64,000 nt of DNA from an uncultured Methanosarcinaceae archaeon (lineage in GTDB: Archaea > Halobacteriota > Methanosarcinia > Methanosarcinales > Methanosarcinaceae). How positions within the stretch are numbered: position 1 is the stretch's first letter; the number at the start of each line of letters is the position of its first letter. The stretch lies in the NCBI GenBank assembly GCA_963847185.1, contig CAWJYV010000008.1, positions 128,001 through 192,000 on the forward strand, written 5' to 3'. The notes under the pieces are model-generated. The model was not told where the DNA came from. It did not search any database and saw only the letters and a program-made list of their open reading frames with translations. The translations under genes and the position numbers were made by a program. Positions 21,244-51,620 of the stretch are shown piece after piece.

Positions 21244-23611
21244 TCACTCTCTCTGGCATTCTTTTCCTTCTTCTGTTGAATACTGCTCTTCTATTTCTTC
21301 TCCAAATTCCTTTTCAGCTTCTTCCCAGCCCCCTTCAAGTTTGTCTTCTATTCCTCCTACTCCTTCTTCTACTTCCTCTTCTACACCGAAGTTTCATATT
21401 CACTGCCTTCAGGCTCGATTCTCTGGCCTTTTCTTTCAGGCTTCTGGCTCTTTAAATCCGATTCTCCAGGGGGGACCATCATGGCAATCAGGTCAGGAGA
21501 AGCTATTTGTTTTACGAAACGAGGATCTCCGAGTTCATCAGAGTAAATTCTGTATATTTTCTTTGAAATGTCGTTCTGGTTGAAAGCGCCAGGCCCTAAT
21601 TCCAGGATGTAATCCCCGTGTTTCCGGACAGCAGAAGCAGGCCCGCCTATTACCCTGGTCTCACCTTTAAGTTCAAGCCCGACTGCAATTCCAAGAGGCA
21701 CATCCTTGAAGTAATTGCGATCTCCTCTTATGATGAAGGCTCCTTTCTTTACGTATTCTCCAGACTCGGGAGTCTTTGTCACCTGCTCGGCCTTAACCCA
21801 GTAGCAGTCTCCACTGAAATGTCCGGCTTTCCAGAGGCTGGAATAAGATACTGCAAACTGCGCAACTTCCTGGAGAGTAGATTCGGGAACCTCTTCTCCT
21901 CCGGTCTTGACAACAGTCAGGGGAGCTCCTGGAGTCTGGGTATGGAAGACAATATCTCTTTTTTCCATATATTTTTTGAAAACTTCCTCATTAGTATCGG
22001 CATCTCTGCCTCCTACAACAAGGAAACCATCTGAAGATACAAACCACCTGAACCTGTCATACCAGTGCTTTTTCCTGGAAGCCTGCAGTTTTCTTCCTGC
22101 TTTTGCAGCCTTTGCTGCAGCCTTTTTCTCCACAGCTTTTTTTGTATCCTCGATAGCCCTGATAGCTCCATCTTTCTTCTTGGTGAACTTCTTAACTTTC
22201 TCGTAATATTCCTGAGCGTTCTGAGGCACTGTCTTCCGGATATCGAGATTAGCGCTCTTTCCATCCAGATCCACAGTTACGGTCCCTGTTTTCTGGTCAA
22301 TGTTTGTGATCTTTTGAGCTGCAGGTGCGGTTTTTTTGGCCTGTTTCAGGATAGATCGGATCTCGTCCCAGGAATACCCTTTCGCTCTTGCGCCGTTGAG
22401 TACGGAAAAAAGCTCTTCTATAAGCTGGTAATTGGCATAAATTATTTCTGCAAGGGTATTATTTTTCTCAATTTCCTTCTCGAATTTTTTAAGGCTCTCT
22501 TCCTGCTGAAGAAGCCTTCTTTCGAAAACGCCAAGGGTTTTTTCCTTTTTTTCAGCCGCTTTTACCTCTGCAACCTGTTCCAGAGCCTTTTTTCCGAAAA
22601 ACTCGTCAAGTGCCGTATTAAAGGAGTCAAAATACTCTTTTTCGTATTCTGAATAACGAATAAGATCAAAAGGCAGTACATCGAAAGTTTCCAGCTTTCC
22701 GTTAATTTCTTTTTTGACGTGCTGGGGCTTTAATTTCGGAGCTTCAGCTTCAGCCCCAGTTTCTGGTTTTAATTTCAATTCAGCTTCAATTCCAGCTTCC
22801 AGTTTCAGTTTCAGTTTCAATCTCAGTCTGCGGTTTAATTCCGGATTTTGATTCTATTTCACCCTCTATCTTTTCTTCAGCCTCGACGGTAGTTCTTCCG
22901 GCTAAATAGAGGGAAAAATAGATCCTGCATTGCACTGCAGAGCTTTGAGGCATCTTCCTCAGATACTTCCTTTGCGGGCTTTGATTTCTCGATTCCTGCC
23001 CTGGCACAGACTTCTTCTGCCAGAACTCCTCCAAGATTGAACCTTGTGGCAATTGTCCGGACAACATCAGCCGTAGATTTCGACAAAGCCTCCATAAGAT
23101 CCGAAACTTTAGCACTTATCGGACTCAACTGCGCTTCAGGCAGTTCGTAAATTTCCCCGCTCCTGAGCCGGCGGTCCTTCAGAGTCACAGGATTCATAGG
23201 CAGAATGATTTTGTTTTCAGTATCAACGATAAGCACGTTCCCCCGAGCAAAAAGCTCAACAATAAGAGTGTTTCTGACCCCTGCTCTCTCAATCCCTATT
23301 TTTACAACCCTGTCAAAATCGTGCTGCTCAAAAGAAACAATCCTGCCTCCCGTCAGGTATTTTCTAAGCAGCATTGGAAAAGCCTGAGGAAGTTCAGGAC
23401 TTGCCCTGAAGTGTTTACTTAAATGGATGCGCTTCCCGGCTTCAATAACCAGGTTGTCCCTTCCCTGGTGAAAAACGTAAAGATTGATGCGGATCTCCTC
23501 ACTTGTAGTCTGGTAAATCTTCCCTACCTTCGCATCAATAATGGACTTCGGCCCAGCTGACAGCTCGGCAACAACTGCAGCAACGTCGGCACTTGACATA
23601 TCCTGTTTCAT
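21244..23611 (-). pseudogene. rqcH: Ribosome quality-control factor RqcH/NEMF (NFACT), frameshifted in this sequence
   Basis: N-part from ATG 23611 (MKQDMSSADV; FPMLLRK; HDFDRV; IVELF). C-part in ORF 21381-22820 (WYDRFRWF, GGRDADTNE, KTPESGEY). Frame breaks near 22905, 22800 and 21392; the acidic tail continues to 21244 in another frame. Confidence 0.85.
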
Positions 23612-23684
23612 AAAGTGGATATAAGAGAGGCTTTTCGTATAAGTGTTACTGTTGAATTTTTTTAGAGTAAGGTCATACCTCCAT

Positions 23685-23811
23685 AGCTGAGCCACCCGAA
23701 TTGCGATTCGGGATCGCAGGAAATCCAAGATTTCCTGGGAGTTGCACTGTAAGTGCAACAGTCCGCTGTCCTTTTCACTCGCTGCGCTCGCTCAAGCAGA
23801 CTAATTTATGG
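23685..23811 (-). repeat. Third copy of the structured intergenic element
   Basis: Reverse complement aligns along its length with 12851-12970. Confidence 0.8.
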
Positions 23812-23949: not shown

Positions 23950-24552
23950 TTAGAGTTCCCTCAAGAGGCGAAAGCCTAAGCAGTCATTGCAGTTTTTGGG
24001 GCCGACTCTGTCGCGAGACGCTGAACGGCAATCTCTAGCACTGCGGATCCAGCTACCGCCCCGATATACTGGATACGAGTCGCCTCCGTCTTCCCAGACA
24101 CTATCATCTGAAGGAGAACCATTGTAGTTCTCATGCCATTCGTCCTGAACCCATTCCCAGACATTCCCATACATATCATAAAGACCCCAGGAGTTGGGTT
24201 TCTTCTGGCCAACTGAATGAGTTTCAGAACCTGAATTTTCATCATACCATGCGTAATTATTAAGCTTTGAGTCATCTTCACCAAAGGAATACCTGTGTTT
24301 GTGTACCAGCTCTACAGGCATATTCCCATTCAGCTTCTGACGGTAAACGATATTTATCGGTGCCTTCCTTTTCATTCAGTTTTTTAACAAATTCTTGAAT
24401 CATCATTCCCACGAAACACATTCTACAGGCCGATCTTCACCCTTGAAATTAGATGGATTATTTCCCATAATCGTTTCCCACTGTTTTTGAGTACCGGATA
24501 TTTACCCATGTAAAAAGAGTTTTGAATTGTTACTTTATGAGCTGGGAGTTCG
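23950..24552 (-). pseudogene. Frameshifted FGE-sulfatase (SUMF1/CLec-fold) domain, C-terminal part of the caspase gene
   Basis: Pieces in shifting frames: [81 protein letters not shown]...GFRL. Confidence 0.85.
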
Positions 24553-25689
24553 TTAGATATAACTATCCTTCTCTTCCAGAGGTGAGCCCATCATGAATTT
24601 TCCGGCTGGGATAAGTATGAATTCAATACCTGTAGAAGGATAGGTGAAAGTTTTGGAGGTTTTTTCATCTTTGAAGATTTTTGAAACATCTAGGTTTCTA
24701 AACCTTGCCAGAATATGTGAATCTTCAATTTCTTCATTTTCCAGGTAGCATTGAACTGTGTGAATATATGTTTTAACACTAATTTTGCCTTCCAGAAGAT
24801 CCTCCAGAGAAGTTCTTATTTCCTCGTCGGTTTCAGTTAGTTCCTCTGATTTTTCATAGGCATCAACAAGGACAATCATAGAGATATCGTAAATAGAGGC
24901 TGGAAGTTCCTTTCGGATATTTTTAACCAATTTGTTTTTCTTTCTTATGAACTCTTTTTCTTTAACTTTTAAGGGGTTCTTTGCAATGAGAAGTTTTCCT
25001 TCGATCTGAGTTTTCATAACTGGAGATTGAGAACTCCTTTTTATTGTTCTGCTGCGGGCATATTCGTACAAATCATTTACGTATATGAGGCCATCTTCGT
25101 CTTCATCTGCACTGCCATCTTCCAGACCTTCCAGCAAGTATTTAGTAAAAACGCCGTGTTTGAGTTCTGTATCCTCTTTGGCTTTCGGTGACCCAATCAG
25201 ACCCGTAGACGTTAGAATAACCGTACCTGAGCCAGAGGAGTAATTAGAAAGTGTTTCTTCTAAATCGTCTCCTTTTATTCCGGCAGCACCACTATAGCAG
25301 CAATCGAGCACAATAATTACTGACTTAAGTGACGGATATGTCATGCATCTGTTGATGTAGTCAAAGTTAAGTGAAGTTGCAAGAGGATAATCTTCTTTAG
25401 TATCCCTGAATAGCAGGCGAAGTCCGTTATCTAAATGCTTTTTACCGTGACCGGAAAAATAGATCAAAATAAGATCGTCACGATTTGCATTTTTCAGCAA
25501 TTTTTCTATTTTGATTCTTGCATCTAAAAAGGTTTCATCTATTGATTCTTCAACCTCATCAAACCCGCAAATATCTTTATTCAGGAGGACCTCTTTCATT
25601 GCGAGAGCATCAGCTACAGCAAATTTCAGTTCTTTATCCGAGCTCGGATAATTATTTCCAATAACAAGCCCTACTTTTTTGCCAGTCAT
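24553..25689 (-). CDS. Caspase-family (peptidase C14) protease, originally fused to the FGE domain
   Basis: GLVIGNNY, FSGHG (catalytic His), LDCCYSG (catalytic Cys), HGVFT.YLLEGL, QSP. Ends in the FGE start motif EFILIPAGKFMMGS. Confidence 0.9.
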   Translation of the reverse strand: MTGKKVGLVIGNNYPSSDKELKFAVADALAMKEVLLNKDICGFDEVEESIDETFLDARIKIEKLLKNANRDDLILIYFSGHGKKHLDNGLRLLFRDTKEDYPLATSLNFDYINRCMTYPSLKSVIIVLDCCYSGAAGIKGDDLEETLSNYSSGSGTVILTSTGLIGSPKAKEDTELKHGVFTKYLLEGLEDGSADEDEDGLIYVNDLYEYARSRTIKRSSQSPVMKTQIEGKLLIAKNPLKVKEKEFIRKKNKLVKNIRKELPASIYDISMIVLVDAYEKSEELTETDEEIRTSLEDLLEGKISVKTYIHTVQCYLENEEIEDSHILARFRNLDVSKIFKDEKTSKTFTYPSTGIEFILIPAGKFMMGSPLEEKDSYI

Positions 25690-25729
25690 GAAGCTAACAC
25701 ACGAATCTGTTATCGAATATATCGAATAT

Positions 25730-26155
25730 TCACTCTTCTGAACTCATGAAACAATTAAGACCTTGACAGACTGATAGTTGCGGGTTTTCTTCAAAAAACT
25801 TAGATAACTTTTCAAGTGGCAGTTTTGAAATTTTAATCACGACTCCGTCAGGGCATTTCAGCTCGATTTCAGCAGTTGGCCTGTACTCAAGCCACGTTTT
25901 CATTGCTTCAAGAATTATGGCGAAAATTTTTCCTGTTATACCGTAAGCTGCAAGCGTACTGAAAAGATGTATTAAATCGACCTTTTCTCCTTCAAGACCC
26001 TTAAGCTCTAAAGGTTCTATCCAGCCATCAGGCATACTCTTGCAAATTGAGCAATATAACTGACAGCACTGCTCTTGCCAGTACTCAGAAGAATCTTCAA
26101 CGCCTTCGGATTTCAGTATGATAGAGAAATTAGACGTATCAAGAACTTGCTGCAC
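25730..26155 (-). CDS. EACC1-like (effector-associated constant component 1) protein
   Basis: ~140 aa; GEK motif, hydrophobic segment (LFSTLAAYGITGKIFAIILEAMKTWL), then IELKCPDG..IKI. Directly upstream of a caspase, the typical EACC1 context. Recognised by eye only. Confidence 0.65.
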   Translation of the reverse strand: MQQVLDTSNFSIILKSEGVEDSSEYWQEQCCQLYCSICKSMPDGWIEPLELKGLEGEKVDLIHLFSTLAAYGITGKIFAIILEAMKTWLEYRPTAEIELKCPDGVVIKISKLPLEKLSKFFEENPQLSVCQGLNCFMSSEE

Positions 26156-26512
26156 TTTGTCACCAGCTAATATACAATTAAAAACTTAAATTTTATTTAG
26201 GAGAATATATCATTTACGATTAATACTCGCTTCAGGACTATTTTTTAGAAAATAAATATAAATTTCCTCTACATTAGACTCACAATAATTTTTCAAAAAA
26301 TGCGGTAGGAATTAAATCAATAATGTCTCTTCTTATCAAAAAGGTCTTATCCTAAAAAACTTTCGAATAAAGCTTACACTAATAGATGACCAATAGATAA
26401 CCAAAAGTAAAATATGAGATGATTTATTTTAGGAAAAACCCAAACTAAATCCTAATTAAATCCATACACTAAATCTCTCGTAAGATCCAATAATCCAAAA
26501 AGCCCTGAAACC

Positions 26513-27757
26513 ATGGACAGTCGAACCGCCCGTTTTTTGAAATCTCGCTTTCAGAATTATTACAAAAATGCCGAAATAGGTCTGCCTGACCACCTGCATA
26601 ACAGGGAATGGGCTTTTATCTTCTATGATGATATGCCTGAAAAAATGATGCACAGGCACAAGTCCTTCGGCTCGCCAGGAGAAACTCTTGATTATCTTTA
26701 TGGGATGGCTCCGGCGCACGTTTACAATTCGGTTGCTTATTATGAATATCCTGACGCAAAGAAAATGAATGAAAAAAACTGGCTTGGGGCAGAACTGATT
26801 TTTGACCTTGATGCAGACCACCTGCCAAATGCTCCGAGAAACTATGCAGATATGCTGGAGCTTGTAAAGAAGGAAACTTTCAAGCTCATGGATTTTCTAC
26901 TAGACGATTTCGGGTTTTCGGAGCAGGAAGTTGAGCTGGTCTTTTCCGGGGGAAGAGGATATCATTTCCACATCAGAAGTCCGAAGGTACTGGCTCTTGG
27001 AAGTGCTGAGAGACGGGAAATCGTAAATTATGTCAGCGGAAAAGATATTGATTTCAAACATTTTTTCAGGGAAGTCGCAATGGATGGAGATTTTGGAGCA
27101 GGGTCAAGGACTTTCAAAGGAATAAAAAATGTGCCTGTAAAGTGCACGCTTGTTGGTTATGATTCAGGATGGGGGAAGAGAATTGCGTTTTATCTTACGG
27201 ATTACATGAAGACAGAATGTGAAAAAAAATACAAGAAGGATATGTTCCCTGAGCTCCGCAGGCATGAGAAAATTGGAAGTACTACAATAAAAAAACTGAT
27301 AAATATTACCAATAGCGAAAATGGCCTAAAGGATATACTGGAGAAAGGAAGGCTGGACTTTGATGTCAGAAACTTTAAGGATATTGCTGCCTATTTTATG
27401 CATGAATCAGTAGAGAATTTTCTGCACAGATTCGGGGCCAGTGTCGATGAACCTGTGACTGCGGATATCAAACGTCTTATCCGGGTTCCGGGGTCTTTGC
27501 ATGGCGGGTCCGGGATGCTTGTAAAGAAACTTGCTTTCTCCGAGCTGGAGAAGTTTGATCCACTTAACGATGCTATTGTCTTTGGTGAAAGGTTGGTAAA
27601 GATATCCGTCTCAAAGCCTTTCTCGGTACAGATGAAGGGTAAGGATTTAAAAATTGAAGAGGGCATACAGGAAGTTCCGGAGTATGCGGCAGTATATCTG
27701 ATTTGTAGAGGTGTTGCAGAATATGGATATAGAAGAAATCAGCCAGACCCTGTATAA
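26513..27757 (+). CDS. priS: DNA primase catalytic subunit
   Basis: REWAF, ELIFDLDADHL, FSGGRGYH, DEPVTADIKRLIRVPGSLHG. Confidence 0.96.
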   Translation: MDSRTARFLKSRFQNYYKNAEIGLPDHLHNREWAFIFYDDMPEKMMHRHKSFGSPGETLDYLYGMAPAHVYNSVAYYEYPDAKKMNEKNWLGAELIFDLDADHLPNAPRNYADMLELVKKETFKLMDFLLDDFGFSEQEVELVFSGGRGYHFHIRSPKVLALGSAERREIVNYVSGKDIDFKHFFREVAMDGDFGAGSRTFKGIKNVPVKCTLVGYDSGWGKRIAFYLTDYMKTECEKKYKKDMFPELRRHEKIGSTTIKKLINITNSENGLKDILEKGRLDFDVRNFKDIAAYFMHESVENFLHRFGASVDEPVTADIKRLIRVPGSLHGGSGMLVKKLAFSELEKFDPLNDAIVFGERLVKISVSKPFSVQMKGKDLKIEEGIQEVPEYAAVYLICRGVAEYGYRRNQPDPV

Positions 27758-50496: not shown

Positions 50497-51620
50497 GTGA
50501 ATAAAGTTTCCATAGTCCGCTGTCCTGACTATTCTCTTACAAAAAGAGCAATAGCAGAAGCTCTGGAGCTTGTAGGAGGCCTTGAAAGTTCAATCGATCC
50601 CGGAGACCGTGTGCTTCTCAAACCAAATATTCTTGCGGCCAGCCCTCCGGAAGCTGCCGCCACAACTCACCCTTATGTAGTGGCTTCAATGTGTGAATTC
50701 GTGCTTCAGGCAGGAGGGAAACCGATTGTAGGTGACGGCTCAGGAATCTCAAGGCCCGGAGCTACTGCAAAAGCCCTGAAAGCCTCAGGTATAGAAGAAG
50801 CGGCCAGAAAAGCCGGAGCCAATATTGTAAATTTTGAAACCTCAGGCTTTACTCTTGTCGAAGTTCCTCAACCCCTTCAGTTCAGTAAGATATACCTTGC
50901 AAATCCCATTCTTGAATCGGATGTTGTAATATCTCTTCCCAAATTGAAAACTCACGAACTTACCTATTACACAGGTGCGGTAAAGAACTTTTTCGGAGCC
51001 ATTCCCCTGAAATGCCGAAAGAAATGCATCTACTTGGAAAAAAAGAGCTTTTTGGCGAGGCTGTTGCCGACATATACTCTGTAATCAAACCTCATTTTGC
51101 AGTTATGGATGGAATTATAGGTATGGAGGGAAACGGGCCTTCCCATGGAAAACCTGTAAATTCCGGTGTAATTCTGGCAAGTCGGGATTGCGTTTCTCTG
51201 GATATTGTTGCTGCAGAGATGATTGGTTGTGATCCTCTTAATATCCCAACAACTTCAGGCGTCCTCAAGAAAGGTTTTGGAAATCAATGCCCTGTTATCG
51301 TCGGAACGCCGTTGAAAGAAGTCAAAATGAAATTTAAACCTTCAAGCGGAGGAGTAAGTACGGCTCCTACGTTTCTAACCCGCCATCTAGGCAAATACTT
51401 CACTATTTATCCGCAGATAAACAGGAGAAAGTGCACTCACTGCGGGGCCTGTTATTATAATTGTTCTCCCCATGCTATTGAAAGACTTGAAGATGGGAGT
51501 TTCAGGATTAACAACGAAAAATGCATTTTATGTTACTGCTGCCGTGAACTCTGCCCGAATAATGCCGTAGATATCAAAAAGTCGTTACTTGCAACTCTTC
51601 TGACAGAAAGGAAAACCTAA
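50497..51620 (+). pseudogene. DUF362 protein with C-terminal 2x[4Fe-4S] domain, one frameshift
   Basis: VLLKPN, TTHP, PKLKTH, GAVKN.FG, then DG..GMEGNGP, CTHCGAC...C and CILCYCCRELCP. A single missing A near 51018 (CGA AA GAA ATG CAT). Confidence 0.8.

Follow-up and report, generated by a model that had tools for sequence, protein, structure and literature searches.

EACC1-caspase systems were defined, as System 4, by Kaur, Burroughs, Iyer and Aravind (2020, PMC7159879). In the sole member that has been tested, EACC1-KrAvs12 from Ktedonobacter racemifer, the caspase cuts EACC1 and only the C-terminal fragment is toxic; cleaved EACC1 permeabilises liposomes, uncleaved EACC1 is an autoinhibited monomer, and the system responded to a phage protein (Evans 2025, 10.1101/2025.11.14.688446). 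Here we analyse a gene pair from an uncultured Methanosarcinaceae archaeon. It lies in the window, by which we mean the whole stretch of 64,000 nucleotides that was studied (contig CAWJYV010000008.1, positions 128,001 to 192,000), and consists of a small gene and a caspase gene located between rqcH and priS. The pair probably represents a divergent Methanosarcina-clade EACC1-caspase conflict system, the sensor half of which is most likely pseudogenised in this genome.

The pair shares with EACC1-caspase systems a 5' gene for a small protein of about 130-140 residues, whose hydrophobic segment is conserved and includes small residues, a 3' gene opening with a caspase domain and closing with variable domains, tight adjacency of the two genes, a patchy distribution, and profile-level homology to both the Pfam EACC1 family and the NCBIfam EACC1-associated caspase. 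It differs in its host, which is archaeal, whereas the papers on these systems deal mainly with actinobacteria and other bacteria. It also differs in its small protein, which is too divergent for a direct Pfam match, and in its sensor, which is of the FGE/CLec type instead of the Avs/STAND ATPase described for K. racemifer and is frameshifted in this genome.

Two further arrangements are similar in their logic. In Pepco (Trypco)-protease modules, a protease fused to an FGE-type sensor adjoins a small protease-activated pore-former (Evans 2025). However, Pepco is a different small-protein family, described there as pre-assembled beta-barrels, whereas the protein studied here links only to EACC1; moreover, the protease here is a caspase, unlike that of the Pepco modules. 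The same text draws the parallel to gasdermins, autoinhibited pore-formers that are freed by one cut from a neighbouring caspase-like protease. Unlike gasdermin, the small protein is much smaller, the part that would be removed is N-terminal, and there is no relation in sequence or fold (no match of its predicted fold in the PDB at E ≤ 0.001).

The gene pair and its kinship with EACC1 and its caspase

The two genes are co-oriented on the minus strand, with rqcH/NFACT on one side and the divergently oriented priS on the other (flanks assigned with Pfam). This is the arrangement that an earlier sequence-only reading of the window had described, and open reading frames (ORFs), motifs and flanks bear it out, with the addition that rqcH itself is split. 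The small gene (25730-26155) is an intact open frame of 141 codons with a GTG start. The open frame of the caspase gene (24553-25689, 378 residues) follows 40 nt downstream, and the remainder of the FGE/CLec sensor domain (PF03781), the apparently pseudogenised 3' part of the caspase-FGE gene, occupies 23950-24552 on the same strand as frame-shifted pieces. Both the small gene and the caspase gene have many conserved homologs and hence are not chance ORFs.

The GEK motif, the hydrophobic segment and the tail that the sequence-only reading had described were all found in the ORF at 25730-26155, the motif as LEGEK (G56-E57-K58), the segment as FSTLAAYGITGKIFAIIL and the tail as KTWLEYRPTAEIELKCPDGVVIKI. 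The protein has 70 close homologs of about 142 residues with 50-97% identity, every one unnamed or 'hypothetical', and the named carriers among them are mostly Methanosarcina or Methanomethylovorans. An AlphaFold2 (AF2) model of high confidence (pLDDT 91.6) has an alpha+beta fold. Strand 10-16, helix 24-40 and strand 45-52 are followed by an exposed loop (53-60), in which position 58 is occupied by Arg or Lys in all 26 close homologs and in 37 of the 39 members of the broad set introduced below. The hydrophobic stretch is packed as strand 61-71 and helix 75-90, with two short strands thereafter; in this segment F65, S66 and F78 are invariant and T67, L68, G72, T74 and G75 nearly so. The feature by which Kaur et al. 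(2020) characterise EACC1, a hydrophobic segment in whose centre small or glycine residues cluster, is therefore present, with alpha+beta elements on either side in the AF2 model. Unlike known EACC1 proteins, the model ends with two extra, clade-specific helices (114-140), and the clade has the invariant cysteines C30, C101 and C130. These three are invariant across the 26 close homologs; only C30 is common in the broader family. They might serve metal binding, redox chemistry or cross-linking.

The kinship with EACC1 becomes apparent at the level of profiles. Among the close homologs, 15 of 26 match the Pfam EACC1 model (PF19953; model length 107, gathering cut-off 23.6 bits) at E ≤ 10, the best with E 0.0024. 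When 1.8 billion proteins were searched with a profile built from the close homologs, 53 proteins matched it at E ≤ 0.001. In the broad alignment, which comprises 39 rows (the window protein and 38 of these proteins), 15 match PF19953 at E ≤ 0.01, and EACC1 was the only family matched. Two of the proteins found by the profile, P0209 (E 1.1e-14) and P0217 (E 2.5e-12), reach 26.4 bits over PF19953 positions 6-101 and 25.1 bits over positions 4-102, respectively, both above the gathering cut-off. Aligned with hhalign, the close family and 16 distant homologs, eight of which individually matched EACC1, gave 99.87% probability (E 1.4e-31, 116 columns). From these profile comparisons the small protein appears to be a divergent member of the EACC1 family.

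The caspase frame carries the motifs FSGHG and LDCCYSG and matches PF00656 with E 2e-13. Its catalytic dyad is well conserved among 33 homologs (H81 invariant, C130/C131 nearly invariant), and D27, D129 and E172 are invariant. The 378 residues comprise the caspase domain (1-237), a linker of five helices (239-333) and about 30 residues from the start of the FGE domain; the AF2 model (pLDDT 82.7) shows a caspase fold, and the solved folds nearest to it are those of MALT1 paracaspase and metacaspases. Of the properties the sequence-only reading had ascribed to this gene, the His/Cys dyad and the helical linker (by AF2) could thus be recovered, but not the caspase and FGE domains as one intact gene, since the frame stops at 24553. 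The top NCBIfam match is NF047832, 'caspase, EACC1-associated type' (E 2.5e-35, covering 9-207 of the 211 model positions), and UniRef gives the same name to homologs from two Methanosarcina. PADLOC matched the caspase to a generic caspase model only (E 3.2e-10) and did not match the small protein. A complex prediction for the caspase domain (1-245) with the small protein scored 0.00 (mark 0.32), a result that bears on binding in neither direction. On the same contig, outside the window, a six-frame match revealed a second caspase-domain locus (contig positions 516951-517679) with three internal stops, one TGA and two TAA, which may be another decayed caspase gene.

Several observations speak against assigning the pair to the EACC1-caspase systems. 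The window protein itself has no Pfam or NCBIfam match, even at E 10, and a six-frame search of its own genome with PF19953 gave no match either. The caspase scores 121.9 bits on NF047832, under the curated cut-off of 140. The hhalign comparison is not an independent test because the EACC1-positive set was drawn from the profile hits of the window family. Finally, no experiment on any archaeal EACC1-caspase member was found in the literature. A word-indexed search with the broad alignment was uninformative, as it returned close relatives only, none annotated as EACC1, and a cluster look-up of ten distant homologs gave no informative names. The EACC1 likeness proposed by the sequence-only reading thus holds at the profile level (P0209 and P0217, PF19953, hhalign), not as a direct Pfam match of the window protein. 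The marks of the system that this genome lacks are a direct PF19953 match, a caspase that reaches the NF047832 cut-off, and both genes in intact form.

The broken sensor domain

The FGE domain is spread across three frames, and the caspase frame ends ~30 residues into it. Indels were placed by a frameshift-aware alignment to an intact ortholog and by DNA alignment to four intact orthologs of 588-598 residues. Relative to these four, the window has one additional nt at ~24565, one missing nt at 24492, two additional nt at ~24404 and one additional nt at ~24293. The first indel in the FGE domain produces the premature TAA after residue 378. The FGE pieces in the shifted frames retain conserved motifs, and on metagenome contigs of relatives (from four runs, fragments only) there is one extra base at 24491/24492 compared with the window, an observation that does not discriminate between real indels and errors. 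Any protein made from the window gene would still end at residue 378.

A possible interpretation is that the module is intact and working, and that the four indels are assembly or consensus errors together with the frameshifts in two other window genes, rqcH and a DUF362-ferredoxin gene. In a syntenic comparison with 76 kb of a complete congener, these two and the caspase-FGE gene are broken in the 64 kb of the window, while none is broken in the congener. The rqcH/NFACT gene (21381-23758, minus strand; NFACT_N and NFACT-R_1) consists of two pieces, 22877-23758 with NFACT_N positions 3-244 and 21381-22820 with positions 242-417 and NFACT-R_1. Compared with intact orthologs the pieces lie in two different frames, and congeners have a single frame of 799-828 residues. 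The break (region 22779-22910) falls within a variable linker containing a (GAAACT)n-like hexanucleotide repeat (tandem repeat 22779-22827) with a T5 run adjacent. The gene for DUF362 and 4Fe-4S ferredoxin (50497-51620, plus strand) is split by a 1-nt deletion near 51019, where A4 in the congener has become A3. Furthermore, conserved motifs survive in the frame-shifted FGE pieces, and the net sum of the four indels is +3, so that the last piece (23950-24375), and with it the final ~100 residues, is back in the caspase frame. No reads of the source organism were found with which the indels could be told from assembly errors; among the public sequencing runs there was none with more than 13% of the sampled words, and no RNA run was listed among those containing them. 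With two other frameshifted genes in the window, one of them in an A-run, some assembly error may be present. These points count against a real decay of the sensor half. The small gene and the caspase part are still open and may retain a residual or altered function, which is a point against a non-functional module.

Nevertheless, an intact module is unlikely. Four indels fall within ~275 bp, while the remaining alignable coding sequence (~45 kb) shows no more than three, a distribution far from what a uniform error process would leave. All four are situated outside runs of three or more identical bases, and one of them inserts 2 nt. The closest database relatives of the caspase (83% and 77% identical), which come from independent data sets, are likewise truncated within the FGE domain, at 363 and 453 residues. 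Lastly, decay of the caspase-FGE gene is common in the genus, as described below. The clustering of the indels outside homopolymers, the truncated nearest relatives and the lesions in congeners argue for real decay over assembly error, and the sensor half has very probably been pseudogenised by the four indels. The module in this genome is most likely a decaying, non-functional copy.

The sequence-only reading had proposed a circuit in which a ligand bound by the CLec domain activates the caspase. As assembled, this circuit cannot run here, the FGE sensor being frameshifted.

Misassembly by mixing of paralogs was also considered for the FGE domain. It is unlikely because the genome has a single other FGE gene, which is 75% identical over 97 bases. 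The C-terminal stretch of the caspase-FGE proteins is strongly variable between orthologs, as in CLec/FGE targets of diversity-generating retroelements. Unlike such targets, the sequence at 23950-24200 has no second copy in its genome that could serve as a template repeat, except that a conserved portion of the other FGE gene contains a stretch of 75% identity, and no reverse transcriptase (PF00078) is present in the 99.8%-complete genome. This mode of diversification was thus rejected.

Distribution, pairing and sensor exchange in relatives

The small gene is present in 13 of 36 genomes of the same genus, with one copy in its own genome, and was absent from all 24 genomes drawn from other families of the order. 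We compared 14 loci from 12 congeners. In 13 of these, caspase-coding sequence stands directly after the small gene, with an intact caspase protein in nine. Thus the pair is conserved together in other genomes, as the sequence-only reading would require. The adjacent, co-oriented arrangement also recurs in a bacterial locus: in the Deltaproteobacteria metagenome-assembled genome found with P0209, a gene of 132 codons is followed after 29 nt by a gene for a 769-residue protein that opens with a caspase-like domain (judged by eye).

Ten of the 14 congener loci are located beside rqcH and/or priS, five of them with both flanks in view. Five complete congeners that lack the small gene were compared, and in all of them the rqcH-priS interval holds only a standalone FGE gene for about 271-290 residues. 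Congeners carry such a standalone FGE gene between priS and the module (L022:5681-6496, with equivalents in L021, L024, L025, L027, L030, L032, L033 and L035-L039), frequently with a GTG or TTG start. The N-terminus of its product shares homology with the caspase linker, which makes the standalone gene look like a remnant, the 3' half, of an older caspase-FGE gene. In relatives it encodes 271-274 residues at the place that corresponds to window positions 26156-26512, but the window lacks it and has there an AT-rich intergenic stretch (GC 0.31-0.35) between the small gene and priS. This stretch presumably contains the promoter of the module. On its far side priS, the gene for the DNA primase small subunit (26513-27757, plus strand; PF01896), is intact and 87-91% identical to its congeners.

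Four further congener loci lie elsewhere. They carry a 133-141-residue relative of the small protein together with a caspase that is followed by PKD and a beta-propeller, by BACON and PKD, or by PKD alone. In databases, the C-terminal domains of caspase homologs include FGE, TPR, TIR, S-layer, PKD, PF16640 and DUF1566. The small gene is therefore the constant element, and the domains C-terminal to the caspase vary. Both patterns that the sequence-only reading had suggested looking for, an rqcH-priS interval with or without the module and an exchange of its sensor, were seen across the genus.

Lesions of the caspase gene recur in these loci. In the complete congener L021 the gene is interrupted after residue 125 by an insert of ~3.1 kb (L021:8013-11131) and carries a frameshift in addition; neither of the two ORFs of the insert (387 and 289 residues) belongs to a Pfam family. 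In L027 a caspase stump of 61 residues lies beside a fragment that resembles an insertion sequence (judged by eye). The caspase gene of L033 is split into 113 and 446 residues, and L034 has no caspase at all.

The starts of the small gene also vary. A Shine-Dalgarno-like GGTGA lies immediately upstream of its GTG start in the window, and a GGTGG or GGTGA motif is kept just upstream of the start across loci. The codon aligned to Met1 is ATA in six of 12 loci (L021, L022, L024, L025, L027 and L030), GTG in the window (26153-26155) and ATG in five of 12. The non-ATG starts may be deliberately weak starts for a toxic protein.

These patterns bear on the question whether the module serves defence. 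Alternatively, it could mediate stress- or development-linked death or lysis in aggregate-forming Methanosarcina, with the FGE domain sensing an endogenous or cell-surface ligand and not a virus. In line with this, EACC1 systems were reported in 650 of 671 organisms scored as multicellular (Kaur et al., 2020, Table 1), fusions to DnaK-like domains have suggested a link to the stress response (Evans 2025), and the neighbours of the locus are housekeeping genes, none of them recognisable as a defence gene. Yet the patchy occurrence (13 of 36 congeners), the frequent decay and the swapped sensors form the pattern of accessory conflict genes, and the only tested EACC1 system responded to a phage protein (Evans 2025). 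We regard a role outside defence as improbable.

Possible mode of action and its implications

If intact relatives behave like the K. racemifer system, the 142-residue EACC1-like protein would be made as a soluble, autoinhibited monomer. Its partner of about 590 residues (caspase, helical linker, FGE/CLec) would sense a trigger through its C-terminal domain, and the activated caspase would cut the small protein in the exposed beta2-beta3 loop, most likely after the conserved Arg/Lys58. The freed residues 59-141 with their hydrophobic part would then assemble in the membrane and kill the infected or stressed cell. We infer cleavage, cut site, pore formation and trigger, and likewise the activation of the caspase through ligand binding to the FGE domain. 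The AF2 model, with a packed hydrophobic stretch and an exposed loop 53-60, is compatible with an autoinhibited monomer and matches the one described in Evans 2025.

With respect to the cut site, MALT1 and metacaspases cleave after basic residues (Arg/Lys) via an acidic pocket. A cut after K58 is suggested by the basic residue in the exposed loop, by the invariant acidic residues of the caspase and by its MALT1/metacaspase-like fold. The predicted P1 residue would thus be a conserved Arg/Lys, compared with the Asp49 that was proposed for the bacterial protein.

Kaur et al. (2020) put forward the reverse order, in which a membrane-inserted EACC1 acts as the sensor and activates the caspase, which would then undergo autoproteolysis and thereby set free its C-terminal domain (in this case FGE/CLec) as the effector. 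The hydrophobic segment does contain the patch of small residues (G72, T74, G75) that their paper describes, and the C-terminal domains are highly variable. However, in the AF2 model the hydrophobic stretch lies in the interior of a soluble fold, and FGE/CLec, PKD, BACON, TPR and beta-propeller domains are modules for binding and not for killing. In the one tested system, moreover, it is the C-terminal fragment of EACC1 that was toxic, and liposomes were permeabilised (Evans 2025). For these reasons the reverse order is highly improbable here, and we favour EACC1 as the effector that is set free by the caspase.

The locus is less novel than the sequence-only reading had assumed, since the EACC1 family and its mechanism had been described before and Methanosarcina caspases already bear the name EACC1-associated. 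The window pair is a new, divergent archaeal member of a known, recently characterised system. No description of the archaeal module was found in the literature, with the supplement that may list archaeal examples (Figure 1-source data 1 of Kaur et al., 2020) lying outside the search.

The copy in the window, most likely a relic in the course of decay, is ill suited to experiments, for which intact congeners are better. We also expect that surveys of defence systems would undercount archaeal copies, because the small effector is labelled 'hypothetical' and is missed by the Pfam EACC1 model.

More tentatively, intact relatives might constitute a working archaeal branch of EACC1, distinguished by the two-helix C-terminal extension, the three invariant cysteines and an Arg/Lys-specific cut after residue 58, and forming pores in ether-lipid membranes. 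If this is true, the branch would provide the first protease-gated pore-forming immune effector in Archaea, and the rqcH-priS interval would be a genus-wide hot spot for the repeated gain, exchange and loss of modules with different cytoplasmic binding sensors (FGE/CLec, PKD, BACON, beta-propeller). The weak starts of the small gene (ATA or GTG, 7 of 12 loci) would then hold the dose of the toxin low. Should intact relatives work as proposed here, the logic of gasdermins and pyroptosis would reach the methanogenic archaea, whose membranes and viruses are very different from those of bacteria.

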